In this document: positions 10,748 to 37,386 of the stretch, piece after piece
Layout of the letters: each line of letters begins with the position of its first letter
Numbering within the stretch: the first letter of the stretch is position 1
Source: an uncultured Candidatus Saccharibacteria bacterium
GTDB lineage: Bacteria; Patescibacteriota; Minisyncoccia; 2-02-FULL-40-12
Direction: 5' to 3'
NCBI GenBank assembly: GCA_964361105.1
Contig: CAYHZG010000003.1
Location: forward strand, 1-37,419
Length of the DNA: 37,419 nt
Made by a program: the position numbers and the translations under genes
The notes under the pieces: model-generated
Told to the model about the DNA's origin: nothing
What the model saw: only the letters and a program-made list of their open reading frames with translations
The model's database searches: none

Positions 10748-10804
10748 TCCCGATTTTCATTTATGAAAATCGAGGATCCTCGATTCTGCAAAGCAGAATC
10801 GGGA
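10748..10804. repeat. Family B double-hairpin element, copy 1 (intergenic)
   Basis: TCCCGATT[TTCAT-TT-ATGAA]AATCGAGGATCCTCGATT[CTGC-AAA-GCAG]AATCGGGA. Confidence 0.85.
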
Positions 10805-15257: not shown

Positions 15258-17657
15258 ATGAGCGAATTCAAGATCAATAATTTTACCGTTAAAGACGAAC
15301 TCCCGGTAATTGCTTTAAAGGAGGTAGTTTTATTTCCGACCTTAATCGTTCCAAATATAATCATTGGCCGGCCTAAAACCATGGCCGCTTTGGGCAAAGC
15401 CATGATTGAAGATAAGCTGGTTATCTTTGTCGCTCAGAAAAATCTATCAGAAGAGGTCAGTCCGGAAAATCTTTATTCGGTCGGAACCCTGGGCCGGATT
15501 AATCTGGTTTTAAAGGCCAATGGCGGCACCGCCAGAATTGAAGTCGAAGGTCTTAAAAGAGTCAGAATTTTGAATTTTCCGAAAACCGAGCCGTATCTAG
15601 CGGCCAAAATTGAACCGCTTGATATTCAGAAAGGAGATAATCTTGAAGTTGAGGCCTTGGTTAGATCGGTTTTGGAGAATTTTGACAAGGTTTCAGAAGT
15701 GGTTAGGCCGCTCCCGCCGACCTTTTTTAATTTAATTAAAAGCATCAAAGACCCGGAGCAGGTTTTATCGCTGATTGTTTATCACTTGGGCTTCAATGTT
15801 GTTGACCAGCAAAGAATTTTGGAAACAACCGATATCAGAGAGGTGCTTAGAGAAATTAATAAACATTTGGTTAAAGAATTGGAAATTTTGGAAACCGAGA
15901 AAAAGTTGGCCAAGGAAACCAGAAAGCAGCTTGGTAAGATGCAAAAGGAGGTTTATCTGCGGGAACAGCTTCGGAGTATTGAAAAGGAATTGGGCTTGGC
16001 TGGAGAAAAAACCGAGTTTGAAATGCTTCGCAAAAAAATAAAAGATGCCAAAATGCCCAAAGAAGTCGAGGCCAAAGCAACCAAAGAACTTGAACGGATG
16101 GAAAAAATGCCTTCATTCAGCCCAGAAGTCGCCTATATCAGGACTTATCTTGATTGGCTGGTTGAACTGCCTTGGTCTAATTCGACCAAAAACAAGATAG
16201 ACATTAAAAAGGCAGCCAAAATTTTGGAGGAGGACCATTTTGGCCTTGAAAAAGCTAAGGAAAGAATTCTGGAGTATCTGGCCGTCCAAAAACAAGTTGG
16301 TAAGATTAAAGGCCCAATTCTTTGTTTTATGGGGCCGCCCGGAACCGGCAAAACCTCAATCGGCCAGTCAATCGCAAGGGCTCTCGGCCGGAAGTTTTTA
16401 AGAATTTCTCTTGGCGGCATCAGGGATGAAGCCGAGATAAGGGGCCACCGCCGAACTTATGTTGGTGCTTTGCCCGGCCGGATTATTCAAGGGATTCATA
16501 GCGTCAAGGTCAATAATCCGGTTTTTATGCTGGATGAGATTGATAAAATCGGCTATGACTTCCGGGGCGACCCGTCAGCCGCTTTGCTTGAGGCCTTGGA
16601 TCCTCAGCAAAACAATTCATTCTCTGACCACTACCTTGAGACACCCTTTGACTTATCCAATGTTTTCTTCATCACCACGGCCAATATCTTAGATACCGTT
16701 CCGCCGGCCCTGCGCGACCGTTTGGAAATAATTGAGTTTCCGGGTTACACCGAGCATGAAAAATTCCATATTGCCAAAGGATTTTTGATTCCTAAGCTTT
16801 TAAAAGAGCATGGTGTTGAAAAAATGGTCAGTTTTAATGATGAAGCAACCAAAGAAGTGGTCAGACGTTATACCCGCGAGGCCGGAGTGAGGGATCTTGA
16901 AAGGCAATTAGCCAAGGTGGCCAGGAAGAATGTCCGGAATTTAGTTGAATCAGGCAAAAGGGCCGGAAAAATTTCGGTTGATATTTCCTCATTAAGAAAA
17001 TTTTTAGGTCCAGAAAGATATATTTCTCAGCTCGCCGAAAAAAGAGATGAAGTTGGCGTGGCCACGGGCCTGGCCTGGACCTCAGTTGGAGGAGAAGTTT
17101 TGTCGGTTGAGGTGACTAAGATGCCGGGCAAGGGAAAACTGGAACTGACCGGTCACTTGGGCAATGTCATGAGAGAATCGGCCAAGGCAGCTTTGTCCTT
17201 TTCGAGAGCCTATGCCTCAAAAGCCAGCGACATTCTGAAAGATTTTTATAGCTACGATATTCATATTCATGTTCCTTCGGGCGCGATTCCCAAAGACGGC
17301 CCATCAGCCGGGATAACCATTTCTACGGCTTTGATTTCGCTTTTTACCGGAGCCAAAGTTAGAAAAGACGTGGCCATGACCGGCGAGGTAACATTGCGCG
17401 GCAAGGTTTTGGAAATCGGCGGGATTAAAGAAAAAGTTTTGGCGGCTCACCGAGCCGGCATTAAAAATGTGATTTTGCCCAAAGACAATGAAAAGGACTT
17501 AGACGACATACCCAAAGAAATAAATAAAGAAATGAAATTCATTTTTGTCGAGCATATGGGTGATGTTCTGAAGGCGGCTTTAAAGTGGCCCAAGGCGCCA
17601 AAAGGTGAGGTTATCCAACCGCGAAGCTTAATCGCTCAAATTCCGCGCATCTCATGA
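15258..17657 (+). CDS. lon: ATP-dependent protease La
   Basis: GPPGTGKTS Walker [27 protein letters not shown] catalytic Ser, IGGIKEK. Confidence 0.98.
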
Positions 17658-17658
17658 A

Positions 17659-17828
17659 TCCCGTTAGAAGTCGCCCTAACGGGTTAAACGAATAAAACAT
17701 CAAATGAATAAGAAAAGTAGCTCTGCGCATAAAACTAACAATGCAGACTGCGCAGTCCCGTTAGAAGCCGCGAGGGCCCGCAGCGTGCCTCTGCTTCTAA
17801 CGGGACGAAGCAGCGACTTCTAACTGGA
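17659..17828 (+). mobile_element. Family A element, copy 2, with a nested short copy; flanked by TGAA/TGAA
   Basis: TCCCGTTAGAAGTCGC...GCGACTTCTAACTGGA; TGAA at 17655-17658 and 17829-17832. Confidence 0.85.
17756..17805 (+). mobile_element. Family A short (50-nt) element nested in copy 2
   Basis: TCCCGTTAGAAG-CCGCGAGGGCCCGCAGCGTGCCTCTG-CTTCTAACGGGA. Confidence 0.85.
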
Positions 17829-19728: not shown

Positions 19729-21168
19729 ATGAATAAAAAATCATTGTTTTTTATTCCTTTGATTTTTTTCCCGATTTTGTCCACCGCTTTGCGGTGGCTA
19801 CAAAATCGAGGATCCTCGATTAGTAAACAAAAACTTTTAGTTTTTGTACTAATCGGGACTTTTTCTTTTTTTACTTTTAATTTTTCAAGGGCCGACGTTC
19901 AACAGGATATTTCAGAAAGAGAAAGGCAAATTCAAGAACTGGAAAGGCAGAAAGAAGAGTATCAAAAACAAATTACTGAAAAACAGAGTGAAGCTCGAAC
20001 TTTGGAGGGCGAGATTTTTATTTTTGATACCGAAATCAAGAAACTTAAGCTGGAAATAAAGGCCTTGGACTTGGCTATTCAACAAACCGGCTTTGAAATT
20101 GACGAGACCATAAAAAATATAGACGAAACCCTTTCCAGAATCGAGAGAATCAAACAGAGCTTGGCTCAATTCATAAAGTTAGTCCATCAGAGCGACCAGG
20201 AAACCCTTCTTGAAATTTTACTGAAAAATCGTGACCTTTCTGACTTTTTCGGCAATCTTGAAAGTATCCGAGCTTCCCAAGAAAAAGCTCAAGTCACGAT
20301 CAAAGAATTAAAACAGTTAAGAGTGGAACTTGAACAAAAGCAGGACGAACTGGAACAAAGAAAAACCGAACAAATCGGCCTGAGAAACATTCAACAAATC
20401 CAGAAAAAAGAGGTTGACTCAAAGAAAAAAGAGAAAAACGACATTTTAAAAGTGACCAAGGGTGAAGAGAAAAAGTTTCAGGAACTGGTCAAAAAAACAA
20501 ACCAGGACATAGAGCGGCTAAGAGGCCAGGTAAGGTTTTTACTTGAGCAGGGGATTACTCTTGAAGAGGCCATAAAGTACGGGCAATTAGCCGCCACCCG
20601 AGTCGGCATCAGGCCTTCATTCCTTTTGGCAATTTTAGATGTTGAATCGGGCATTGGAAGAAATGTTGGTACCGGCAATTGGCTGGATGATATGTATAAT
20701 TGTTATTTGCGGCTTGGCAAGCCAACCAGGGCCGAAACCGAAAAGAACGCGTTTTTTGCGATAATCGGAAAGCTTGGCTTGGATGCCAATTCGGTAAAAG
20801 TTTCAAGGGCGCCTAGTTACGGCTGCGGCGGAGCGCTTGGCCCAGCCCAGTTTATTCCTTCAACCTGGCTTTTATATGAATCCGACGTGGCTCGTTTGAC
20901 TGGGCATGGTTTGCCTAACCCTTGGAGTATTGAAGATGCTTTTATGGCGGCGGCGATATATCTTTCCAATGCCGGAGCCACTAATCAAACCCGAGCGGCC
21001 GAGATAAGAGCCGCCAATATTTATTTGAGCGGAAAGGCCAATTGCCGTAAGAGTGTCTGCCGGTATTACTCAAATCTGGTTTTGCAAAAAGCAGCAGAGA
21101 TAGAAAAAGATTTGCCCCAAATAAGTAGCGGAGTTATCAACAGTTTTATTTTGTCCCTTTTTGAATAA
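19729..21168 (+). CDS. Coiled-coil (PcsB/CwlO-like) protein with C-terminal lytic transglycosylase (MltB/SLT_2-like) domain
   Basis: Long heptad region; LLAILDVES, GALGPAQFIPSTW, NPWSIEDAFMAAAIYL. Confidence 0.85.
   Translation: MNKKSLFFIPLIFFPILSTALRWLQNRGSSISKQKLLVFVLIGTFSFFTFNFSRADVQQDISERERQIQELERQKEEYQKQITEKQSEARTLEGEIFIFDTEIKKLKLEIKALDLAIQQTGFEIDETIKNIDETLSRIERIKQSLAQFIKLVHQSDQETLLEILLKNRDLSDFFGNLESIRASQEKAQVTIKELKQLRVELEQKQDELEQRKTEQIGLRNIQQIQKKEVDSKKKEKNDILKVTKGEEKKFQELVKKTNQDIERLRGQVRFLLEQGITLEEAIKYGQLAATRVGIRPSFLLAILDVESGIGRNVGTGNWLDDMYNCYLRLGKPTRAETEKNAFFAIIGKLGLDANSVKVSRAPSYGCGGALGPAQFIPSTWLLYESDVARLTGHGLPNPWSIEDAFMAAAIYLSNAGATNQTRAAEIRAANIYLSGKANCRKSVCRYYSNLVLQKAAEIEKDLPQISSGVINSFILSLFE
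19769..19858. repeat. Family B element, copy 2 (90 nt, in frame in the N-terminal region of the transglycosylase)
   Basis: TCCCGATTTTGT...ACAAAATCGAGGATCCTCGATTAGTA...TACTAATCGGGA. Confidence 0.85.
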
Positions 21169-21264
21169 AATATATATAGATATGAATCTATATAATTATT
21201 TCGCTTGGTTGAAGTGAATAAATAACTATTCACTTCTCCCTCGCTTATAATTATAATTTTGGTA

Positions 21265-25464: not shown

Positions 25465-25491
25465 TTTAAACTTTTATTAAAGTTTTACTTG

Positions 25492-25602
25492 CCCCGTTAG
25501 AAGTAGCCCTAACGGGTCAGTAAATTAAACAGTTATTAATTAAAGTATTTTCAGAGACACATTGGTCACTCCTATGTGTTGCTGTTACTACTTCTAACGG
25601 GG
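25492..25602 (+). mobile_element. Family A element, copy 3 (111 nt), ending on the G of the GTG start
   Basis: CCCCGTTAGAAGTAG...CTACTTCTAACGGGG 15-bp inverted repeat; internal CCCTAACGGG. Confidence 0.8.
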
Positions 25603-27361: not shown

Positions 27362-27540
27362 AAAATTTATTCTTGTCTTTGCTGAATGGGAATATTTGGT
27401 TCGCTCATTCTCGGGCATTCCAGCGATGCCCTCCGAGGTCGTCGGCCGTTTTGCCTCGCTATTGCTCGGACCAAGCCAAAACGGCCTCCGAATCCGCTTA
27501 CCAAACATTCCCATTCAGCTTTCCTAAAATTTTCTATAAC
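27355..27540. repeat. Nested inverted-repeat structure after infA
   Basis: GTTATAGAAAATTT / AAATTTTCTATAAC (14 bp), GCTGAATGGGAATATTTGGT / ACCAAACATTCCCATTCAGC, GGCCGTTTTG / CAAAACGGCC. Confidence 0.8.
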
Positions 27541-27726
27541 GAAAAGCCCGCAGGGTATGGTTGTTGAGGAACCTCGTGAACCGAGCCGTTTTGAGGAGAT
27601 ATGCTTTATAGCGAGGCGAACGAGGAGTGAGGGTTTATTCTGATAAACAGGAGATAAGATAATTATATAAGATGTATGAGGCCGAACGTTTCCGAAACAA
27701 CTATACCCGAGAGGCCTTTCGTTATA
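27535..27726 (+). repeat. Family C element, copy 1 (conserved core 27567-27693 inside a long closing stem)
   Basis: Core aligns to the reverse complement of 37232-37359. Confidence 0.85.
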
Positions 27727-27730
27727 CACA

Positions 27731-27844
27731 ATGAGAATTCGTTCAGCAGTCAAAAAAATGTGCCGGAATTGTAAAATTGTCCGAAGAAAAGGACGGCTAT
27801 ATTGCATTTGCAGGAATCCGAAGCATAAGCAGAGACAGAAGTAA
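27731..27844 (+). CDS. rpmJ: 50S ribosomal protein L36 (Zn-binding form; below the ORF-track cutoff)
   Basis: [37 protein letters not shown], in canonical position. Confidence 0.97.
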
Positions 27845-28017
27845 GTTTTTGTCCAAGAGCGAAGCGATTGGTAACAAAAAGTTACCGAGCACATAAGGCG
27901 TTATGTGCTCGGTGTCAGAGCACACAATAAAATTGTGTGCTCGATCGAGCACTTAACAGAGTTAAGTGCTCTGACTCAATGTTGTAGCTATTCGCTTCGC
28001 TCATAGACAACATTGGC
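27845..28017 (+). promoter_or_regulatory. Structured rpsM leader (family D, copy 1) with three GAGCAC...GTGCTC hairpins
   Basis: GAGCGAAGCGA 27857-27867 pairs with TCGCTTCGCTC 27992-28002; three internal hairpins. Confidence 0.6.
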
Positions 28018-28404
28018 ATGGCTAGAATTTCAGGGGTCAATATTCCAGACAACAAGCGAATAGAAGTTGCCTTAACCTATATTTATGGAATAGGTTCGAC
28101 TTTAAGTAAGCTAGTTTTAAAAACAACCGGCGTGAATCCAGACAAAAGGGCTAAGGATTTAACCAGCGATGAAATTAACAAAATTCAAAACGTTATAGAA
28201 AAAAATTATCAGGTGGAGGGCGATTTGAGAAGGGAAGTATTGGATAATATAAAACACATGAAAGAATCTGGAACCTGGCGGGGGATGAGACATTCTAAAA
28301 AACTGCCTCTTCATGGCCGGACCAAAACTAATTCAAGAACTTTAAGGGGGAACCTTAGAAAGACAATGGGTTCGGGCAGAAGGCCGCCGGCGACGCCGAC
28401 TTAA
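28018..28404 (+). CDS. rpsM: 30S ribosomal protein S13
   Basis: MARISGVNIP, ALTYIYGIG, VEGDLRR, RTKTNSRT. Confidence 0.98.
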   Translation: MARISGVNIPDNKRIEVALTYIYGIGSTLSKLVLKTTGVNPDKRAKDLTSDEINKIQNVIEKNYQVEGDLRREVLDNIKHMKESGTWRGMRHSKKLPLHGRTKTNSRTLRGNLRKTMGSGRRPPATPT

Positions 28405-28526
28405 GGAATAGCTCTCCTTCGCTAAAGCTCTCTCCTTCAGTAAACTTTCGGAGAGCAGGTCGGAATAGCACTTCGACTTGTCCTCTGAAGTTTTAACGAA
28501 AGAGGAAGCTCCGAAGGAGCGAAGAA
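28405..28526. repeat. Palindromic REP-like cluster between rpsM and rpsK
   Basis: CTCCTTCG.....AGCT at the left matches AGCT.CGAAGGAG at the right; internal CTCTCC/GGAGAG, AGGTCG(G)A/TCGACTT and TCCTCT/AGAGGA stems. Confidence 0.65.
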
Positions 28527-28997
28527 GTGGGTAAAAAAAGAATTGTGGTAAAACCTGGTGATGAGACATTGACCATTGAAAAAGGGGTTGAGGTTAAGGT
28601 TTCCCCGCTACATAAAGTAGCGGGGCAGGCAAAAAAAGCTGTCAAAAAACAAGTGATCAGGGGCAATGTTTTTATTCACGCCAGTTTTAATAACACGATT
28701 GTTACCGTTACTGATGAAAAAGGAAATGTGATAACTTGGGCTTCGGCCGGAAACCTTGGTTTTAAAGGCACGAAAAAATCAACGCCTTTTGCGGCGACGT
28801 TGGTTGGAAAAGCCGCCGCTGAAAAAGCAAGAAAATTCGGTTTTACCGAAGCCGAGGTTTACGTAAAAGGAGTCGGGCCTGGTCGGGAGGCGGCCATTCG
28901 AGGTTTATTTTCGGCCGGCATAGATATTAAAGGAATAATTGATAATACGCCGATTCCGCATGGCGGGGTCAAGCCGCCGAAACCTAGGAGGGTTTAG
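28527..28997 (+). CDS. rpsK: 30S ribosomal protein S11
   Basis: ASFNNTIVTVTD, GFKGTKKSTPFAA, GPGRE, TPIPHGG. Confidence 0.98.
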   Translation: MGKKRIVVKPGDETLTIEKGVEVKVSPLHKVAGQAKKAVKKQVIRGNVFIHASFNNTIVTVTDEKGNVITWASAGNLGFKGTKKSTPFAATLVGKAAAEKARKFGFTEAEVYVKGVGPGREAAIRGLFSAGIDIKGIIDNTPIPHGGVKPPKPRRV

Positions 28998-29127
28998 TTT
29001 TTGTCTAAGAGCGAAGCGATTAGCAACAAAATCTAAACCGAGCACTCAGCAAGGAAAATTATTTACATTTCTGAGTGCTCGGTGCTGAAATTTATAGTTG
29101 CTCGCCGAGCTCGCAAATAAATTTCGC
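28996..29127 (+). promoter_or_regulatory. Structured rpsD leader (family D, copy 2)
   Basis: Same 5' block as the rpsM leader; hairpin ACCGAGCACTCAG / CTGAGTGCTCGGT. Confidence 0.6.
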
Positions 29128-29766
29128 ATGGCAAGATACACTGGTCCAAAAGAAAAAATTGAAAGACGACTGGGTGAGAAACTTTTTTTGAAAGGGGAGC
29201 GTTCTTATTCTCCAAAAGCAGCCATGGTTCGTAAGCCCTATCCGCCAGGGGTCCATGGTCGTCGCCTAAAAAACAGAAAATTTTCCGAGTACGGCCTTCA
29301 ACTTATCGCCAAGCAAAAAGTCAGAAATATTTATCGCATTTTGGAGAGACAGTTCAGAAGATATACCGATGAAGCGGTGAAATCTAGGGGTGATTCGGGT
29401 GAGGCCTTGGTCCAAGGTTTAGAAAGACGGCTGGATAATGTAGTTTTTCGATTAGGATTTTCTGATGCCAGAGACACGGCGAGACAACTGGTTAGCCACA
29501 GTCATTTTTTGGTCAACGATAAGCATATCAACATTCCTTCTTTCAAGGTCAGAGTTGGCGATGTCGTAAAAGTAAAACCGCAAAATTTAAAGAACAAATA
29601 TTTTTCTTCTTTTCTGCCTCGATACTTGAAAAAGTACCAGCCTCCTAGCTGGCTTGAGGTTGATAAAGAAACATTTATCGGCAAGGTTAAGAATTTGCCA
29701 AGTTTAGCCGAAAGCGGCGTTCAGCATAAAGATGTTCAGGCGATAATTGAGTTTTATTCGAGGTAG
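29128..29766 (+). CDS. rpsD: 30S ribosomal protein S4
   Basis: MARYTGP, PPGVHG, SEYGLQL, LERRLDNVVFRLG, ARQLVSH, IIEFYSR. Confidence 0.98.
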   Translation: MARYTGPKEKIERRLGEKLFLKGERSYSPKAAMVRKPYPPGVHGRRLKNRKFSEYGLQLIAKQKVRNIYRILERQFRRYTDEAVKSRGDSGEALVQGLERRLDNVVFRLGFSDARDTARQLVSHSHFLVNDKHINIPSFKVRVGDVVKVKPQNLKNKYFSSFLPRYLKKYQPPSWLEVDKETFIGKVKNLPSLAESGVQHKDVQAIIEFYSR

Positions 29767-29781
29767 GCAAAGCCATATGGA

Positions 29782-29896
29782 TCCCGAACGAAATAGCCCT
29801 GTCGGGTTCGGGATATAAGTAAAATTTTAATTAAATAGCATGATGGGCAATTATAGACTTATGTATATAACTGCGCAGCAGCTATTTCGTACGGGA
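29782..29896 (+). mobile_element. Family A divergent copy 4 (115 nt) before rpoA; flanked by TGGA/TGGA
   Basis: TCCCGAACGAAATAGC...GCTATTTCGTACGGGA; shares ACTGCG(C/A)AGCAGC with copy 5 and, split by the nested insert, copy 2. Confidence 0.75.
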
Positions 29897-30657
29897 TGGA
29901 AATTTTAGTCGGAGAGCCAAAAATTGTCAGCAAAGAAAACAACAGAACGGTTTTTGAAATTAGCCCGCTCTATACAGGATATGGGATAACAATCGGAAAC
30001 TCCCTCCGGAGGGTTTTACTTTCTTCAATGCCCGGGGCCGCGGCCGTGAAAATCAAGATTGAAGGCGTGCCTCACGAATTCACGACCATTCCTGGCGTTT
30101 TAGAAGATGTGGTAGACATAATTTTAAATTTAAAGAAAGTAAGGTTTAAACTTTCAGGAGTTGATTCGGCCAAAGCCATTTTGAATGCCAAAGGAGAGAA
30201 AGAAATCACGGCCGGCGATTTAAGTTTGCCGACTGGTGTGGAGGTGGTAAATCCGGACCAAAAAATCTTAACTTTAAGCGACAAAAAAGCCGAGGTTAAT
30301 ATGGAGATAGAAATTGAAAAGGGCATTGGTTATGGGCCGGTTGAGCAAAGGCAGAAAGAGAAACTTTCGGTCGGGGAAATAGCCATTGACGCAATTTTTA
30401 GTCCGGTTCGGAGGGTCAGTTTTCGAGTTGAGAATATCAGAGTGGGGGAGAGGACTGATTTTAATAAACTTTTCATTGACGTTGAAACCGACGGCAGCGT
30501 TACTCCCGAAGAAGCCATGAAAAAAGCAGTTGGAATTTTAATTGAGCAGTTTAAGGTAATGGGCGAGAGTCCAAATTTAGAGGTTAAAGTAAAAGAGCCA
30601 GCCGAAGACAAACCAAAAAAGAAAAGAGGAAGACCCAGAAAAGTAGTCGGTAGTTAA
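29896..30657 (+). CDS. rpoA: RNA polymerase alpha subunit lacking the alpha-CTD
   Basis: GYGITIGNSLRRVLLSS, HEFTTIPGVLEDV, IDAIFSPV, RVGERTDF, ETDGS; ends KKKRGRPRKVVGS at 253 aa. Confidence 0.97.
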   Translation: MEILVGEPKIVSKENNRTVFEISPLYTGYGITIGNSLRRVLLSSMPGAAAVKIKIEGVPHEFTTIPGVLEDVVDIILNLKKVRFKLSGVDSAKAILNAKGEKEITAGDLSLPTGVEVVNPDQKILTLSDKKAEVNMEIEIEKGIGYGPVEQRQKEKLSVGEIAIDAIFSPVRRVSFRVENIRVGERTDFNKLFIDVETDGSVTPEEAMKKAVGILIEQFKVMGESPNLEVKVKEPAEDKPKKKRGRPRKVVGS

Positions 30658-30671
30658 AAATTAGAAAAATC

Positions 30672-31019
30672 ATGAGAAAACGGAAAAAGGGGAAAAAATT
30701 TGGAAGAGTCAAAGAACAGAGAAGAGCTTTAATGAATAGCTTGGTTTCTGCATTGGTCTTGCATAAAAAGATAAAGACCACCGAGGCGAAAGCCAAAGAG
30801 TTGAGGCGTTTTATAGAGCCCTTGATTACCAAAGCCAGAGTCGGCGATTTGGCCAAAAGGCGTCAGGTCAGAAAATTTTTGTCTGACTCAATTACCAAGA
30901 AACTGTTTGATGAAATAGGACCGTTGTATAAAGAAAGGCCCGGCGGCTATACCAGAATCATCAAACTGGCGCCACGGGAATCGGACGGAGCGCGAATGGC
31001 CCAGATAGAATTTGTATAA
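30672..31019 (+). CDS. rplQ: 50S ribosomal protein L17
   Basis: IKTTEAKAKELR, ERPGGYTRIIKL. Confidence 0.98.
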   Translation: MRKRKKGKKFGRVKEQRRALMNSLVSALVLHKKIKTTEAKAKELRRFIEPLITKARVGDLAKRRQVRKFLSDSITKKLFDEIGPLYKERPGGYTRIIKLAPRESDGARMAQIEFV

Positions 31020-31354
31020 TGATTGAGATTGATGCTTCAAACCAACCATTAGGACGCTTGGCTTCAAAAATAGCCCAGTTTTTGCGAGGGAAGCAAAGTC
31101 CTAGCTTTCAGCCGTATATTCTTTCTAAAGAAAAAGTTATGGTGAGCAATGCCGGAAAGATGAAATTTACCGGTAGGAAAATGGAGCAAAAAAAGTATTA
31201 TCATTATTCGGGTTATCCAGGCGGGCTTAAAGAAAAGAAAATGAAAGATGTTTTTGAGAAGAACCCGAATGAGGTTTTAAGGAGAGCGGTCTGGGGAATG
31301 CTTCCCAAAAACCGTTTGAGAAAGGAAATGATAAAAAATCTACAATTTAAATGA
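31019..31354 (+). CDS. rplM: 50S ribosomal protein L13 (short form)
   Basis: IDA..LGRLAS, LRGK, HYSGYPGGLK, AVWGMLPKNRL. Confidence 0.96.
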   Translation: MIEIDASNQPLGRLASKIAQFLRGKQSPSFQPYILSKEKVMVSNAGKMKFTGRKMEQKKYYHYSGYPGGLKEKKMKDVFEKNPNEVLRRAVWGMLPKNRLRKEMIKNLQFK

Positions 31355-31887
31355 TGGTTAAAAAAACTGCAAAAAAAACAAAAGAGCCAGCTCCAAAAAA
31401 GAAAGTAGTCGTCGAAGGCGAGCCTGGCCAAGGGCGGGAGATAAAAGTTGAGGTTAAAGCTGTAGAAAGTCCAGAAAGATATCTTGAGGCAGTTGGCCGG
31501 AGAAAAGAATCCATTGCCAGAGTCCGGCTTTTCACCAAAAAAGCAAGCGATAAATTCCCGGAAGACAAGGGCTTGATTTCGGTCAATCAGAAATCATATC
31601 AAGAGTATTTTAAGGATCCATTTTTGCAAAATACGGTTGAAGCGCCTCTTAGAAAGTTAAAATCATTGGACAGGTTTAAGGGCTCGGTTATGGTCAAGGG
31701 CGGGGGGCTCTCCGGCCAGGCTGATGCTATAAAACTAGGCGTGGCTCGGGCTTTGGTTTTGTTTGACGCCAACTACCGCAAGAAACTCAAAAAATTCGGC
31801 TACCTGACCCAGGATTCCCGCATCAAAGAAAGACGGAAATACGGACTAAAGAAAGCACGAAAAGCGCCGCAATGGGCGAAGAGGTAA
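31351..31887 (+). CDS. rpsI: 30S ribosomal protein S9 with Lys-rich N-terminal extension
   Basis: GRRKESIARV, GGGLSGQADAI, KERRKYGLKKARKAPQWAKR. Confidence 0.98.
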   Translation: MMVKKTAKKTKEPAPKKKVVVEGEPGQGREIKVEVKAVESPERYLEAVGRRKESIARVRLFTKKASDKFPEDKGLISVNQKSYQEYFKDPFLQNTVEAPLRKLKSLDRFKGSVMVKGGGLSGQADAIKLGVARALVLFDANYRKKLKKFGYLTQDSRIKERRKYGLKKARKAPQWAKR

Positions 31888-31925
31888 TGTCAAAATTTAC
31901 GATGCCGCATTGGGCAAAACGATAA

Positions 31926-31995
31926 GGAGTCATAACTCGGTTGCTTCATCTGCTATAAGTTATGACTCCAGTTTCGGCGGGTTTTCTGTTTTTAT
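31926..31995 (+). terminator. Hairpin after rpsI, possible operon terminator
   Basis: GGAGTCATAACT...AGTTATGACTCC 12-bp stem, then T-rich sequence. Confidence 0.45.
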
Positions 31996-32049
31996 TTGAC
32001 TCCATTTCTTCTTTTAAATACGATTAAGCCAGCACTTAGGAGGGAGGTG
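31996..32049 (+). promoter_or_regulatory. Sigma70-like promoter and strong Shine-Dalgarno for the orphan gene
   Basis: TTGACT 31996-32001, 17 nt, TACGAT 32019-32024; GGAGGTG 32043-32049. Confidence 0.6.
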
Positions 32050-32053
32050 AGTG

Positions 32054-32632
32054 ATGCGATTAGTTACTCCAGTCTTTTTGACGGTGTTGCTGTTTTTTTC
32101 GTGGCCGGCGACCGCGAGTCAAGCAGTCCAAAGGCAAAAACTCTGTTCAGAAATGGACGAGAAAGAAAGGCGCAAGACCGAGCGCTGTAAAACTGACCAG
32201 GAGCGGCGCGAAGACGAGCAAAAACGCCATCTGGCTGAAATCGCCGAGAAAGAGAAGCCGACCAAGAGTTCCTTTATGAAATGGGTCCATTTGGACGGCT
32301 ACTGGATTCAGAGCGCAAGCTCAAATATGTTTCAGGGTCTTGCCGGAATGCATGTTGTAGTTTTTGAGGAAGGCCGTCTCCAGCTCTACGGTCCGCCCGG
32401 CATTATCCTTGTCCGCCAGCAGGTCAGCAAAGAGGAGCATCAGCTCCACTTTGGCATTACTTGGGGATTTAGTTTTCGTTTATTCGATATTCGTGTTCCG
32501 GGTACAGACAATGAGGTCAGGGTCTTTGGCAATTTGGCCAAGGTTTGGCTCCAGGGCGTCAATCAGGATATTCCCGGAGCGAGCATTTCAGCAATAGACA
32601 TGGTTGGCCTTTCGGTCACTTTTGCCAAGTAG
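32054..32632 (+). CDS. Hypothetical secreted protein, probably horizontally acquired
   Basis: Signal peptide (ATA-SQA); visibly GC-richer codons; own promoter, SD and terminator. Confidence 0.7.
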   Translation: MRLVTPVFLTVLLFFSWPATASQAVQRQKLCSEMDEKERRKTERCKTDQERREDEQKRHLAEIAEKEKPTKSSFMKWVHLDGYWIQSASSNMFQGLAGMHVVVFEEGRLQLYGPPGIILVRQQVSKEEHQLHFGITWGFSFRLFDIRVPGTDNEVRVFGNLAKVWLQGVNQDIPGASISAIDMVGLSVTFAK

Positions 32633-32644
32633 GTCCGCCAAGCG

Positions 32645-32698
32645 GCCCCGCCACCAAGAAAGAAAGGCCTTGTCCTTCCAGCTTGGCGGGGCTTTTCT
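32645..32698. terminator. Terminator between convergent genes
   Basis: GCCCCGCCA...TGGCGGGGC followed by TTTT. Confidence 0.65.
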
Positions 32699-32701
32699 AA
32701 T

Positions 32702-33580
32702 TCAGATAATTAAGTCGTTCCTCCCGCCACTTGGGTCTACTTCCACGAAATTAGTTTTGCCGCTTTCGGTCAGATAAATCAGATGCCAGCTTGTTTTAAA
32801 CCATAAGACCCGCTCTATTTTTTCACTGGTTTTTAAAATCACTTCTTTGTGGCTTTTTTCAAAATACGGCGGCTCATTTTCATTTTTAAGCCAGAGGATG
32901 CTTATCTCATTTTGGCCGACAACGGCCAGTTTTTTGTTGTCCGGCGACAGGACTAAATCGTTTGCAGACGAAGAATGAATATTTTCCCAATTGCCATCTG
33001 AACTTAATAAGAACACACCGGGCGCCTTGAGGTCTTTTGAGGCCAAGTAGATCTCCTTCTCCAAAACTTTTAATTCAAAGTTCTTAATGTACACCGATTC
33101 GGAAGATATTTTTTCTATTTTTTCATCTTCGGTTTTTCGATAAAGCAAGCCGTCTTTTTTATTTATGAAATAACTGGGGTTTTCTTTTACTGGTTCTGAA
33201 CTTTCAATGAAATCATTTATCTCTCCCTGGTCCGGCAAGTAAAGATGAGTCAATTGGTTGGCTTCGCCGGATTTAATTTCAATAGTTTTGCTGATTTTTG
33301 GAAATCCTTCTTTTGAAAATTTTAAGTCATATTTCCCGGGCAGAAGATTTTTTTCAATGAAAGTATTGGAAAAGAACGAGGTTTTTCCCTTGAGGTGGCC
33401 GTTAATGTAAACCTCAACGCCATCCAGATTTGCCTTTGTAAAAAGACCGCCGGTTTCCACCCATTTTAAATTAGCGAAATTAAATTGATAGCCGTAAGCG
33501 TATGAAATTATAAAATAACTCAAAACAAAAAAAGCCAGAAACGAAGTGATTAAAATTGCGGTCTTCGTACGTTTACTCAT
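32702..33580 (-). CDS. Membrane-anchored PEGA-domain protein
   Basis: N-terminal TM, YAYGY, TGGL, VYING, NLLPGKYDLKFSKEGF, LSPDNKKLA. Confidence 0.8.
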   Translation of the reverse strand: MSKRTKTAILITSFLAFFVLSYFIISYAYGYQFNFANLKWVETGGLFTKANLDGVEVYINGHLKGKTSFFSNTFIEKNLLPGKYDLKFSKEGFPKISKTIEIKSGEANQLTHLYLPDQGEINDFIESSEPVKENPSYFINKKDGLLYRKTEDEKIEKISSESVYIKNFELKVLEKEIYLASKDLKAPGVFLLSSDGNWENIHSSSANDLVLSPDNKKLAVVGQNEISILWLKNENEPPYFEKSHKEVILKTSEKIERVLWFKTSWHLIYLTESGKTNFVEVDPSGGRNDLII

Positions 33581-33662
33581 GAGAGTTTTTATTTTATACT
33601 TCTATTAATAAATCGTCAATTTGACTTCCGGCTGTTTTTTGATACTTTTTTAATACTTTGAA

Positions 33663-33778
33663 CCCCGTTAGAAGTAGCCCTAGCGGGTGAAACACTCGGG
33701 GTATTAAATATATAACAATAGTAGTTCTGCGTGCATAACCGATTATTACGGACTGCGAAGCAGCTACTTCTAACGGGG
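33663..33778 (+). mobile_element. Family A element, copy 5 (116 nt) before mreB; flanked by TGAA/TGAA
   Basis: CCCCGTTAGAAGTAGC...GCTACTTCTAACGGGG 16-bp inverted repeat; TGAA at 33659-33662 and 33779-33782. Confidence 0.85.
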
Positions 33779-34779
33779 TGAATAAAATTGGCATTGACTT
33801 AGGCACAACCAATACTCTGGTTTTTGTTCCGGGTAACGGAATCAGAATTAATGAACCCTCGGTGGTCGCTGTTTCTTTGTTCGATAATCGGATTTTAGCG
33901 GTCGGGAACGCAGCCAAAGAAATGGTCGGCCGGACGCCGGATACGATTTCGGTAATCAAGCCCCTGAAGGATGGAGTCATTGCCGACTATAAAGTGACTC
34001 AGGCGATGATCAGGTATTTTATCAAAAAAGCGTTCAGCCGATTCAATTTTTTCAAAAAAGAGGTTTTGATTTCGGTGCCGGTGTCCATAAATTCCACCGA
34101 AAGAAGGGCGGTAATCGAAGCCGGAATGAATGCCGGGGTCAAGACGGTTTATCTGGTCAAGGAACCGGTGCTTGCGGCGATCGGTGCCGGCATCCCGATT
34201 AATTCTTCTTACGGCCACATGGTGGTTAATATCGGCGGCGGCATGACCGAGGTGGCGATAATCAGTTTGGGCGGAGTGGTGGTAAGCGCCGGCATAAGAT
34301 GCGGCGGCAATAAAATTGACCAGGCCATCATTGATTATGTTAAAAAAAAGCACAACTTGGCCATCGGCGAGAGAACGGCGGAGTTAATTAAGATGAATAT
34401 CGGAACGGCAGTTAGGATTTCCGGTGAAGAGAAAATTTCAATAAGGGGCCGCGACTTGATTTCGGGCCTGCCAAAAACAATTGATTTGACTTCCAATGAA
34501 GTCAATGAAGCCATCCATGACCAGCTCAAAGAAATCAGTCAGGTTATAAAAAGAGTTTTGCAGGAAACCCCGCCCGAACTCTGTGCCGACGTGATCGAGC
34601 AGGGAATTATTTTAACCGGCGGCGGGGCCCTGCTTAAGAATATTGATACTTTTGTAACCAGAGTAATCGGCGTCCCGGCTCATCTGGCCGAAGAACCATT
34701 ACTTTGCGTGGCCAAAGGCGCCGGAGTAGTGTTGGATAACTTAGACATTTATAAGAGGAATATAATCACTAGGAGATGA
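33778..34779 (+). CDS. mreB: MreB/Mbl actin-like protein
   Basis: IGIDLGTTNT, EPSVVA, PLKDGVIADY, AAIGAG, GRDLISGLPK, TPPEL, LTGGGALL. Confidence 0.95.
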   Translation: MNKIGIDLGTTNTLVFVPGNGIRINEPSVVAVSLFDNRILAVGNAAKEMVGRTPDTISVIKPLKDGVIADYKVTQAMIRYFIKKAFSRFNFFKKEVLISVPVSINSTERRAVIEAGMNAGVKTVYLVKEPVLAAIGAGIPINSSYGHMVVNIGGGMTEVAIISLGGVVVSAGIRCGGNKIDQAIIDYVKKKHNLAIGERTAELIKMNIGTAVRISGEEKISIRGRDLISGLPKTIDLTSNEVNEAIHDQLKEISQVIKRVLQETPPELCADVIEQGIILTGGGALLKNIDTFVTRVIGVPAHLAEEPLLCVAKGAGVVLDNLDIYKRNIITRR

Positions 34780-36005
34780 AAATTGCTCTTATCCACGACT
34801 GGCTGACTCGGCTTGGCGGAGCCGAGAGAGTGTTGATTGCTTTACATAAGATTTTTCCCGAAGCTCCGATCTACACTCTTTTTCATGACCAAAAATTTAC
34901 CTCAGAATATCTGCCTCGAGCAAAAATAATTCCTTCTTTTCTCCAAAAAATCCCAAATATCAAAAAACTGCACCCCTGGTTTAAGATTTTAATGCCTTCG
35001 GCAGTGGAATCTTTGGATTTATCCGGTTTTGATTTGATTATTTCTTCAAGCCATGAGTTTAGCCACGGCGTTTTAGTAAAGCAAAAAACCAGCCACATCT
35101 GCTTTTATCACAGTCCTTCCCGGATTATCTGGGACCGGGCTCACGAATATTTAAGTGATTTTAAAGAAAGGGGACGGGGAAGATTTAAATTGTCGCTAAT
35201 AAAACTGGGCCAGCATTTTTTACGGCTGTGGGACTACACCTCTAGTCAAAGGCCGGACATTATTTTAGCAAACTCTAGACATGTGGCTGAAAGGATAAAA
35301 AAATACTATGGCAGAGAAGCAAAAGTGGTATATCCTCCGATTTCGTTCCCGATGGATTCATTGGGATTACGAAATCGAGAGTCCTCGATTTTCCAACCAA
35401 ATCAGATTGATTTGGGGAAAATCGGGACGCCATACTTTCTGATTGTTTCCCAGCTTTACCCGCACAAGAACATTGATTTAGCGATTGAAGCATTTAAAAA
35501 CTTGCCAAACCTTAATTTACTGACAATAGGGGACGGACCGAAAAAAAAGAATTTAGAATCACGAATCAAAAATTATGGGAATGTAAAATTATTAGGATTT
35601 GTGCCGGATTCGGAACTGCCTTATTATTATCAAAACTGCTTAGCTTATCTTATTTGTAACGAAGAGGACTTTGGCCTTTCGCCGGTTGAAGCAATGTCTT
35701 TTGGCAAACCAGTTCTGGCTTTAAGGCGAGGCGGTGCAATTGAGACAGTTTTGGAGGGTATAACTGGAGAATTCTTTGACCCCATTAGAGGTAAAAACAC
35801 GCTGCGGGCCCTCGCGGCCTCTAACGGGGTAAATGAACTTGTAAAAGCTGTTCAAAATATTAGTGAAAAAATTAAAAATGGCCGCTACGATTCCAAGACC
35901 ATAAAAAAACATTCCGAAAAATTTAGCTTTGAACGGTTTAAAAAAAGGATTCTGGATTTAGTAGATAATTTGGATTATACTGGAAAAACAAGAAAAACAA
36001 TATGA
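34776..36005 (+). CDS. Glycosyltransferase family 4 carrying two palindromic in-frame insertions
   Basis: MKIALIHDWL..GGAERVL, ANS, YPP, GDGP, EEDFGLSPVEAM.FGKPVLA. Confidence 0.93.
   Translation: MKIALIHDWLTRLGGAERVLIALHKIFPEAPIYTLFHDQKFTSEYLPRAKIIPSFLQKIPNIKKLHPWFKILMPSAVESLDLSGFDLIISSSHEFSHGVLVKQKTSHICFYHSPSRIIWDRAHEYLSDFKERGRGRFKLSLIKLGQHFLRLWDYTSSQRPDIILANSRHVAERIKKYYGREAKVVYPPISFPMDSLGLRNRESSIFQPNQIDLGKIGTPYFLIVSQLYPHKNIDLAIEAFKNLPNLNLLTIGDGPKKKNLESRIKNYGNVKLLGFVPDSELPYYYQNCLAYLICNEEDFGLSPVEAMSFGKPVLALRRGGAIETVLEGITGEFFDPIRGKNTLRALAASNGVNELVKAVQNISEKIKNGRYDSKTIKKHSEKFSFERFKKRILDLVDNLDYTGKTRKTI
35335..35427. repeat. Family B element, copy 3 (in frame in GT4)
   Basis: CTCCGATTTCGT...ACGAAATCGAGAGTCCTCGATTTTCC...GGAAAATCGGGA. 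Confidence 0.8.
35780..35829 (-). mobile_element. Family A short (50-nt) element in frame in GT4
   Basis: Reverse complement reads CCCCGTTAGAGG-CCGCGAGGGCCCGCAGCGTG-TTTTTA-CCTCTAATGGGG; same length and core as 17756-17805. Confidence 0.85.
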
Positions 36006-37207
36006 AAAATAAATCACTCATTCTGGTAATAATTATTTCTTTGGCTTTGGGTTTTTTTGCCGGCACGGAATTTCAGAAAACCAAAGTGTCGGACGGCGGA
36101 TTAAGAGAGCTGATTAACCGTGGCTCGGGTCAGCCAGCCGCAGTTGATTTTGGCCTATTTTGGGACGCTTGGAACCTGATTCATGAAAAATATGTTGGCC
36201 GTTCTGAGCTGGATACCCAAGAAATGGTTTTTGGAGCGATTGAAGGAATGGTTAAAAGCATCGGCGATCCGTTTACTGTATTTTTAAAAGAAGAACAAAG
36301 CAAACGGCTGCAAGAAGACATTAGTGGGGAATTTGCCGGGGTCGGAATAGAGATCGGTTTAAGAGATGATATTTTGATGGTGATAGCGCCTTTAAAAGAT
36401 ACGCCGGCTGACCGGGCTGGAGTGCTTGCCGGTGATAAAATTATAAAAATCGATGGCGAATCAACGGCTGGGATTACTTTGGAGGAGGCGGTTTCAAAAA
36501 TAAGAGGCAGAAGGGGAACAGAAGTTGTTTTAACGATTTCCCGGAAAAAAGACGGCAAAGAAGAAACAAGTGATTTTAGTATAATCAGAGACAAAATTAA
36601 AATCCCAACGGTCAAATGGGAAGTAAAGGAGCTAGACATTGGCTATATCCAGCTTTTCAGCTTTAACCAGATAGCTAAAGGTGAATTTGATAAAGCCCTC
36701 GTTGAATTAAAAAAGCAAGGGGCGGATAAGAAATTGATTCTCGATTTAAGAAATAACCCCGGTGGGCTTCTTGACTTAGCCATTGATATCTCAAGCTATT
36801 TTCTGGAGCCGGGCCAGGTGGTGGTGATAGAGGATTTTGGCAACGGTCAAAAAGACGAATTAAAAACAAGATCAAACGGCCGGCTAAAGAATGCCAAGAT
36901 TGTGATTTTGATAAATAAAGGCTCGGCTTCGGCTTCGGAAATTGTGGCCGGCGCTTTGCATGATAATCGTGGAGTTAAGCTGATAGGGGAGAAGACCTTT
37001 GGGAAGGGTTCGGTCCAGCAGGTTGAAGAATTGAGGTTTAAAACGGCTTTAAAGATTACCGTAGCCAAGTGGTTGACGCCGAAAGGTCGGTCAATTACTG
37101 ATGAAGGGATTGAGCCGGATATTAAAGTGGAAAGGAAAGAAGAGGATATAAAAGAGGGGAGAGACCCGCAATTAGATAAGGCGATTGAAGTTATCCGCTC
37201 GCTATAG
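36002..37207 (+). CDS. ctpA: Carboxy-terminal processing protease, S41 family with PDZ domain
   Basis: GDPFT, GVGIEIG, LDLRNNPGG, GSASASEIVAGAL, GEKTFGKGSVQ, GIEPD, DPQLDKA. Confidence 0.93.
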   Translation: MKNKSLILVIIISLALGFFAGTEFQKTKVSDGGLRELINRGSGQPAAVDFGLFWDAWNLIHEKYVGRSELDTQEMVFGAIEGMVKSIGDPFTVFLKEEQSKRLQEDISGEFAGVGIEIGLRDDILMVIAPLKDTPADRAGVLAGDKIIKIDGESTAGITLEEAVSKIRGRRGTEVVLTISRKKDGKEETSDFSIIRDKIKIPTVKWEVKELDIGYIQLFSFNQIAKGEFDKALVELKKQGADKKLILDLRNNPGGLLDLAIDISSYFLEPGQVVVIEDFGNGQKDELKTRSNGRLKNAKIVILINKGSASASEIVAGALHDNRGVKLIGEKTFGKGSVQQVEELRFKTALKITVAKWLTPKGRSITDEGIEPDIKVERKEEDIKEGRDPQLDKAIEVIRSL

Positions 37208-37386
37208 CCCTACCTTTGGCAATGCCTTTCAGGAAACGTTCGGCCACGTACAACTTTAATAATTAGTTTGGTTCTCTGTTTATCAGAATAAACCCTCGCT
37301 CCTCGCTCGCCTCGCTACATATCTTATCTTCTCTTAACGGCTCGGCTCATGAGGTTCCTGAGAAGGCATCGCCAAACGGGCTATAG
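37202..37386 (-). repeat. Family C element, copy 2 (inverted; core 37232-37359)
   Basis: Core matches 27567-27693; closing stem CTATAGCCC/GGGCTATAG, TTTGGC/GCCAAA, ATGCCTT/AAGGCAT. Confidence 0.85.

Follow-up and report, generated by a model that had tools for sequence, protein, structure and literature searches.

The 37,419-nt window analyzed here (GenBank contig CAYHZG010000003.1, which is contig C3 of a 59-contig, 524,235-base, 87.6% complete assembly of a Parcubacteria genome, designated G000) contains two copies of a repeat, Family C, in which a conserved core of 127 to 128 nt is enclosed by complementary arms. Family C is a real, structured element restricted to one family of Parcubacteria, which are ultra-small bacteria of groundwater. 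It is present in multiple copies, its structure covaries with a bias toward one strand, its sites are polymorphic for insertion, and its parts are exchanged as modules. The reading we favor, although with confidence that is only evenly balanced, is that of a non-coding, non-autonomous, mobile and recombining hairpin repeat, similar to miniature inverted-repeat transposable elements (MITEs) and REPINs, whose G·A-rich core would allow it to be recognized in a folded, single-stranded form.

Copy 1 lies on the (+) strand. Based on its sequence and folds, the 5' arm, of type a (CGAAAAGCCCGCAGGGTATGGTTGTTG, 27540-27566), pairs with 27694-27721, with weak pairing extending out to 27535, and the 127-nt core (AGGAAC...GTTTCC, 27567-27693) is followed by a 3' arm (GAAACAACTATACCCGAGAGGCCTTTCG, 27694-27721) that ends 9 nt upstream of the rpmJ ATG at 27731. 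Copy 2 lies on the (-) strand and consists of a 5' arm of type b (CTATAGCCCGTTTGGCGATGCCTTCTC, 37360-37386; sequence and folds), a 128-nt core (37232-37359), and a 3' arm (TGAAAGGCATTGCCAAAGGTAGGGCTATAG, 37202-37231; sequence). The TAG stop codon (37205-37207) of the open reading frame (ORF) at 36002-37207 lies in the outer CTATAGCC of copy 2, as read on the (+) strand. A covariance model built in this analysis (R1) matched copy 1 at 27555-27705 (163.8 bits) and copy 2 at 37220-37371 (167.1 bits). The original prediction had described an almost gapless match between the two cores, each enclosed by a long imperfect stem, and both of these points were confirmed. The core alignment contains one single-base gap (BLAST, 82.8% over 128 nt, E = 7e-32 against the 524-kb assembly), and the cores are the longest inverted pair recovered by repeat search (I1, 84 nt at 87%, plus I6, 34 nt at 85%). 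The closing stem of copy 1 is formed by arms at 27529-27571 and 27690-27732 (43 nt, 77% complementary), and folds of ~190-220 nt around both copies include the closing stem, with z scores of -4.0 to -6.1 relative to dinucleotide shuffles under RNA and DNA parameters. The two extremities of the core, AGGAA at its start and UUUCC at its end, are themselves part of this stem. The closing stems had also been described as unrelated, which is true between these two copies, but they are not private to each copy, as three arm types are distributed over 12 copies. Similarly, the statement that both copies oppose the local (+)-strand genes is correct for copy 2 but not for copy 1, which lies on the same strand as infA and rpmJ.

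In an alignment of 37 sequences (A3), the core folds into a junction in which the inner end of the closing stem (P1) is GGAA/UUCC. The long arm of the core contains P2 (CCUCGU/ACGAGG), P2a (GCC/GGC), and P2b (GC/GC), and is followed by the P3 hairpin (GUUUAU-UCUG-AUAAAC), an AU-rich variable linker of ~25-30 nt, and then a weak P4. For copy 1, on the (+) strand, the long arm spans 27572-27625 with tandem G·A pairs between its helices. The pair tables place P2 at 27572-27577 with 27620-27625 and P2b at 27585-27586 with 27611-27612, while P2a is at 27580-27582 with 27615-27617 and the P3 hairpin (GTTTAT-TCTG-ATAAAC) is at 27633-27648, its middle pair varying between AU, UA, and CG. Three symmetric 2x2 loops, located between P1 and P2, P2 and P2a, and P2a and P2b, each place 5'-GA-3' facing 5'-GA-3' in the contexts UGAG/CGAA or CGAG/CGAG, and are tandem G·A motifs. 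These motifs explain the CGAGG-like tandem units reported in the original prediction, in that the sequence is present as described, but what appeared to be tandem units are actually the two strands of one helix broken by tandem G·A pairs. Tandem G·A pairs in a pyrimidine-GA-purine context are stable in both RNA and DNA, and RNA and DNA folding parameters give the same architecture for the core.

A peculiarity of copy 1 is found at position 27580 in P2a, which is A in this copy alone and G in every other copy and in all aligned metagenome contigs. The A lies opposite a C, so that the first P2a pair is disrupted (A·C).

The fold is supported by covariation. In alignment A3, 92.1% of the paired cells are complementary, compared to 40-50% when partners are slid by 1-3 columns, and the covariation score of 0.164 exceeds the 0.079 obtained in shuffles, with none of 500 shuffles reaching it. 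Alternations include CG/AU, GC/AU/CG/UA, and UA/GU/CG/UG in P2, as well as AU/UA in P3. In a larger set of 89 genome and metagenome matches, 73 of them distinct, the paired fraction of cells is 98.0%, although this alignment was fitted to the model and leans its way; in the 73 distinct sequences of the same model-fitted alignment, both sides have changed in 11 of 25 pairs, compared to 5.5±1.0 in shuffles (0/500). Pairing also extends through the closing stems, most of which show 26-57 cross pairs within 70-nt flanks. This analysis covered 43 of the 49 extracted elements, the other 6 being excluded due to short flanks or an N. The original designation of the core as structured is therefore upheld by the covariation in the core and stems and by the strand bias described below. 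Furthermore, neither of the outcomes that would have counted against the prediction was observed: Rfam, with its self-cleaving ribozyme, HEARO/omega RNA, and 6S families, returned no match at gathering score over the window, none for the core at E up to 10, and none for ten further copies at E up to 5, and the larger alignment does covary. Several other structural proposals were rejected. A hairpin at core nt 21-42 (AAGAG.../...CTCTT), in which 58.9% of cells pair, was removed from the model. A kink-turn consists of a three-nucleotide bulge followed by tandem G·A/A·G pairs, and the three tandem G·A motifs of Family C, as symmetric 2x2 loops without a bulge, do not correspond to one. A partner of the TIGR-Tas or kink-turn protein type was likewise rejected, with no Nop domain found and an L7Ae match that is below the cut-off and contains four stops.

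One-sided changes reveal which strand is under constraint. In the core, nearly all of these produce G·U pairs on the (+) polarity (12 pairs with G·U variants compared to 4 with A·C). In the 43 closing stems, single A·C mismatches number 8 in the (+) fold and 40 in the (-) fold, and for 36 of 43 it is the (+) strand that folds more stably. The copies share ancestry, so that these events are not independent, but the direction is consistent. These results say that a single strand of (+) polarity is under selection, and they apply to RNA and single-stranded DNA (ssDNA) alike.

The genome contains 10 full-length copies of Family C and a further 2 cut by contig ends. Typical elements are ~182-190 nt in size, comprising a 27-nt arm, the 127-nt core, and a 28-nt arm, and each full copy has complementary arms of 27-30 nt, as expected of terminal inverted repeats; one full copy carries a GC-rich expansion of ~80 nt. 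The arms fall into type a (GCCCGCAGGGTATGGTTGTTG ... GAAACAACTATACCCGAGAGGC; 8 copies, including copy 1), type b (GCCCGTTTGGCGATGCCTTCTC ... TGAAAGGCATTGCCAAAG..GGGC; 2 copies, including copy 2), and type c (GGGTATATGCCTAATC ... TGGTAGGCATATACCC; 2 copies). Contig ends hold or adjoin 5 of the 12 copies, which is expected because repeats break assemblies. Similarly, the summed depth of metagenome contigs over the core bins is 27-731, far above that of most bins over flanking genes and as expected for a repeat, although depth is not equivalent to copy number.

Outside this genome, Family C is found in close relatives. A DNA search of 40 relatives matched all but one of the 7 other family members and none of the 33 genomes from three sister families. 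When the covariance model was run on 105 genomes of the order, the 8 family genomes produced 11, 4, 4, 9, 6, 18, 1, and 0 matches, G003 being the one without Family C, and no match was found in 97 genomes of the sister families (0/62, 0/26, and 0/9). In a collection with one genome per species (185,579 species), an exact 28-nt pattern was found at 25 loci in 4 metagenome-assembled genome records of the Parcubacteria/Patescibacteria group, and a 20-nt pattern was found at no fewer than 126 loci in a metagenome collection, with the covariance model confirming 28 matches in 80 of the listed metagenome loci and 21 in the other 46. Every metagenome and genome match is compact, at most 232 nt. No match was found in phage and plasmid collections; one viral-contig match to the pattern was rejected as a member by the covariance model. 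A search of published full texts, which did not extend to supplements, found no paper on such elements in this phylum.

Comparison of orthologous sites demonstrates that the copies are insertions. The infA-rpmJ spacer is 370 nt in this genome, where it holds copy 1 and another hairpin element, and 0-216 nt without Family C in all 7 relatives. The infA stop codon overlaps the rpmJ start codon in 4 of these 7 (ATGA in 2 and GTGA in 2), and on a metagenome contig from a relative, infA is joined to rpmJ without an insertion. Conversely, the ATGA junction at 34776 is empty in the window but occupied by Family C in G006, and by a copy in the reverse orientation in G002. A further copy in G006 lies in frame and without stops inside a glycosyltransferase orthologous to 34776-36005, lengthening an inter-domain linker by ~56-60 residues; among 49 copies, no other has an open frame that runs on into adjacent coding sequence and matches a known protein. 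The C9:7843 copy (C9:7812-7998) spans the full 187-nt interval that separates a stop codon from the following start codon. Orientation relative to neighboring genes is mixed in this genome, with about 5 sense and 5-6 antisense, and of the 49 copies, the 11 that have co-directional long ORFs on both sides comprise 9 antisense and 2 sense. Two other sites provided no usable comparison: the ORF beside the C14 copy has an ortholog in none of 5 relatives, so that no empty allele could be obtained from that site, and for the 19144 and 19720 junctions the middle gene was not found in G006, leaving the comparison with that genome unclean.

The infA/rpmJ junction also carries insertions other than Family C. 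Directly upstream of copy 1 is a separate hairpin element at 27381-27519 (arms 27381-27410 and 27490-27519, 30 nt, 83% complementary), which is missing from the infA-rpmJ spacers of the relatives. In G003 (locus L089), an unrelated hairpin insertion of ~215 nt is present at this junction, and smaller ones of 35-44 nt are found there in G006 and G007, the latter being palindromic. Different lineages have thus repeatedly acquired insertions here. Downstream of rpmJ, the rpmJ-rpsM spacer (27849-28010) holds composite palindromic repeats; in relatives this spacer is 0-15 nt, except for ~100 nt in G003.

The extent of the unit that is duplicated can be read from two near-identical copies in G006, L024 and L042, which share 98.4% identity between the limits GAAAAGCC and GGCTTTTCG and show no relationship outside them. 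The duplicating unit, as defined by this pair, is the arms plus the core. Arms and cores are nevertheless not permanently linked. The cores of L018:726 (type b) and L024 (type a) are 96% identical within unrelated arms, the P2 variant CAUCCG/UGGAUG occurs in both of these arm types in the two genomes of one genus, and one orthologous site is occupied by type-a arms in both G004 and this genome, with a Family C core between them in the former and a different, rod-like cargo of ~190 nt in the latter. The long arm and P3 also accept other hairpins. An 83-nt hairpin element nested in the P3 loop of Family C is 100% identical between G001 and G002, which belong to different genera, and 97.6% identical in G006; its family has 7 free-standing relatives in this genome, including one at 21174-21252 of the window. 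In three copies of Family C, the tip of the long arm is replaced by GC-rich hairpins.

The modules associated with Family C have their own distributions. Rod-like nested hairpins of 180-250 nt are found in this genome at C19:4964-5207, C7:12722-12945, C19:831-1023, and C52:2237-2416, where all four consist of a type-a bracket, CCGCAGGG...CCCGAGAG, around a cargo that is not Family C; these hairpins contain a conserved, asymmetric 4x4 internal loop, CGCA/GAGA. The free-standing hairpins of ~80 nt are located at 21174-21252 of the window and at C10:11998, C18:8287, C8:9968, C27:3901, C36:564, and C7:4813. They have a tandem G·A motif of their own (GYGAGG/CCGARC), with ...TTAT preceding 5 of the 7 copies and a terminus of ...ATAT. 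A 20-nt palindrome, AAAATCGAGGATCCTCGATT, occurs three times in the window (10766-10785, 19802-19821, and 35371-35390) and again in the expansion that replaces the long-arm tip of a Family C copy in G005 (L037). Another dispersed family, consisting of CCCGTTAGAAG...CTAACGGG hairpins, is found at 17655-17689, 25488-25522, 29778-29812, and 33659-33693, as well as at 17757-17804 together with 35781-35828 (repeat search D4, D9, I2, I5, and I18).

Sequence divergence between copies can be much lower than that between the genomes that carry them. Two non-orthologous copies from different genera are identical at 166 of 171 positions, while the rpsM and infA genes show 78% identity between these two genomes, and 56-64% at third codon positions. 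These values reflect horizontal spread, gene conversion, or strong selection for the sequence, and probably a combination. Along with multiple copies, filled and empty sites, and the copy inside a gene, the near-identical copies at non-orthologous sites across genera substantiate the earlier suggestion that Family C is mobile DNA.

Taking these findings together, we propose a model in which Family C spreads as DNA, with most insertions occurring at gene boundaries, ATGA stop/start overlaps among them, and in-frame insertion within a gene being rare. Recognition and copying would act on the folded (+) strand of the core, present as ssDNA or as a transcript. The arms would merely need to pair, and the core would be the specific part, with short Watson-Crick helices of the long arm stacked upon three intervening tandem G·A motifs, predicted to be sheared and lying in pyrimidine-GA-purine context, together with the small P3 hairpin and conserved purine-rich single strands. 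In this model, the core would serve as the docking module for a protein acting in trans. Recombination would reshuffle the modules, placing one core in several arm types, one set of arms around other cargo, and small hairpins within loops. The single-stranded working form, the protein partner, and the copying route are the parts of this model that we infer.

A number of observations weigh against this model. In contrast to classical MITEs, Family C is conserved in its interior and not at its ends, and the search recovered no parent insertion sequence, all matches being of the compact size given above. No match to Y1_Tnp (PF01797, the domain of RAYT transposases; 0 matches at E up to 1), RVT_1, the TnpB zinc ribbon (PF07282), or rve was detected in this 87.6% complete genome. 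At the in-gene copy, the infA/rpmJ site, and the 34776 junction, no direct repeat could be read, leaving a target-site duplication undefined there. Neither the 8 family genomes nor a further search of 958 kb of sequence yielded an arm hairpin free of cargo, and for this reason we tentatively attribute core exchange to recombination between repeats and not to a separate hop of the core. The only clearly orthologous pair of copies (C9:7843 and L035 of G004) is 89% identical, compared to 78% for ribosomal-protein genes (56-64% at third codon positions), which points to selection on resident copies or gene conversion, neither of which would be required of a purely selfish repeat. Finally, the small GIY-YIG genes considered below as a possible source of mobilization have no Family C arms beside them (15 genes with examined flanks in the 8 family genomes), their cassettes have other ends, and nhmmer with a core profile found nothing significant over 30 GIY-YIG loci (best E = 0.26).

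The next most probable reading, which we consider possible but doubtful, is that Family C is a structured RNA module with a function for the host, retained by it at numerous gene boundaries and dispersed through duplication and recombination instead of transposition. Such a module could influence RNA processing or stability, serve as a terminator or insulator, or dock an RNA-binding protein. Covariation in several helices, the G·U over A·C bias of one strand, and the identity of the orthologous pair relative to the ~78% of neighboring coding DNA are consistent with this, as is the tendency of the element to span the full spacer from stop to start codon (C9:7812-7998, copy 1 up to rpmJ, and the stop codon within copy 2). 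Moreover, GGCUUUUCG follows the stem at both outer ends, on either strand, in a terminator-like arrangement. However, the orientation is mixed, and with 9 antisense copies among the 11 with co-directional neighbors, transcription would mostly yield the complementary strand. In addition, one copy is translated within a gene, a promoter scan found no promoter-like site within copy 1, Rfam provided no match, and the absence of Family C from G003 and from 97 sister-family genomes argues against a core cellular function. A role for the core as the active unit itself, that is, a folded RNA or ssDNA copied between hairpin scaffolds without an element-encoded protein, by its own catalytic fold or by hijacked replication or repair, and selected in place, appears quite improbable to us; if true, it would constitute a new type of gene-free, structure-based mobile element in the smallest bacterial genomes. 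The narrower proposal of a catalytic core, in which a ribozyme or DNAzyme-like fold capable of self-cleavage or self-ligation moves between scaffolds without a dedicated protein, is less probable still. The compact, conserved multi-helix junction with its invariant single-stranded purine-rich segments, the near-identical cores within unrelated arms, and the failure to find a mobilizing gene would fit a catalyst, but no Rfam ribozyme family matches, even at E up to 10, no reverse transcriptase was found for an RNA route, and recombination between repeats is a simpler account of core exchange. We strongly disfavor the possibility that the (-) strand encodes a small protein. Although a stop-free (-)-strand frame exists in 18 of 34 copies, compared to 6.6% per frame in composition-matched shuffles, and one copy is translated in this direction inside a gene, the open register differs among copies (10, 4, and 4), all frames are stopped in 16 of 34, no start codon is conserved, and substitutions track base-pairing and not codons. 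A 175-codon (-)-strand frame over copy 1 in the window, which overlaps rpmJ, was judged spurious.

The remaining alternative concerns a specific enzyme. Small GIY-YIG genes are carried by all 8 family genomes, and Family C might be the target repeat of a tiny Ssn-like GIY-YIG nuclease that mobilizes it or acts on it in trans, which we regard as unlikely. Ssn nucleases cut ssDNA beside hairpin repeats (NTS/SRM) that are present in hundreds of copies (Chenal et al. 2025, PMC11893778). Consistent with a role of this kind, this genome has three such genes with inverted repeats, and no other candidate enzyme was found in it. On the other hand, the flanks and the nhmmer search described above connect neither the arms nor the core to any small GIY-YIG gene (0/15 with either adjoining), G003 has 5 GIY-YIG matches yet lacks Family C, and the inverted repeats around the cassettes instead resemble repeat families that are shorter than Family C and distinct from it, such as the one at 27884-27913 of the window.

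The three tiny GIY-YIG genes in this genome are 74-88 codons long and lie between inverted repeats of 14-20 nt (C2:1474-1674, C1:24430-24627, and C21:2375-2554), with TATG on both sides of the C2 cassette. Among systems that have been studied, the nearest to such cassettes are the Ssn nucleases and the hairpin repeats beside their genes. The arms of the hairpin at 27884-27913, in the rpmJ-rpsM spacer, are equal to the inverted repeats around the 74-codon gene of the C21 cassette. By this resemblance, the hairpin looks like a gene-less derivative of that cassette.

The ultra-small genomes of Patescibacteria are generally regarded as having lost their mobile DNA. This genome nevertheless contains at least 12 copies of one structured repeat together with several other hairpin families, and such insertions are located in ribosomal-protein operons, at stop/start overlaps, and even in the linker of a protein. 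If the core fold is a docking site for a protein or nuclease, Family C would represent an undescribed mobilization system based on single strands, and if Family C acts as RNA, it would represent a new class of structured RNA. Either way, it affects the assembly of these genomes, as the 5 of 12 copies at contig ends illustrate, as well as their annotation.

Among known repeats, the hairpin MITEs, including the Correia/CREE elements of Neisseria, the enterobacterial ERIC, and the pneumococcal RUP and BOX, are small, non-coding, multi-copy elements with complementary ends that form a long hairpin, and they are found at gene boundaries in either orientation and co-transcribed with their neighbors. 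Family C resembles these in its size of ~185 nt, lack of a conserved frame, dispersal (12 copies here and up to 18 in a relative), and complementary ends, but it differs in having a conserved interior with a covarying multi-helix fold and three unrelated arm types. The bacterial interspersed mosaic elements (BIMEs) of E. coli are mosaic, combinatorial elements assembled out of a small number of modules; Family C has a similar character, with its three arm types (a, b, and c), alternative cores, and nested small hairpins, although its modules are unrelated in sequence and much larger. In Rickettsia palindromic elements (RPEs), a palindromic repeat lies in frame inside a conserved protein gene and is translated. 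The stop-free copy in the G006 glycosyltransferase is comparable, but it is the only 1 of 49 Family C copies in a confirmed gene, the rest being intergenic.

The systems that act through single-stranded DNA provide the other comparison. REPINs are doublets of repetitive extragenic palindromic sequences mobilized by the RAYT tyrosine transposases and are thought to act as ssDNA. Like these, Family C is an intergenic, hairpin-forming unit whose stems evolve while remaining paired; unlike these, it has no Y1/RAYT match here and consists of one stem around a 127-nt structured core instead of a doublet of short palindromes. Derivatives of IS200/IS605, such as PATEs and omega-RNA scaffolds, differ in that no TnpA or TnpB match was found and the ends of Family C pair with one another instead of each forming a subterminal hairpin. 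The resemblance to the Ssn nucleases and their SRM repeats lies in the presence of small single-domain GIY-YIG genes and many dispersed hairpin repeats within one genome; SRMs are short hairpins without a structured core that flank the nuclease gene (PMC11893778), while Family C has such a core and lies beside 0 of the 15 genes examined. Family C is unusual among bacterial hairpin repeats in combining a covarying interior that is better conserved between genera than ribosomal-protein genes with ends that are interchangeable.

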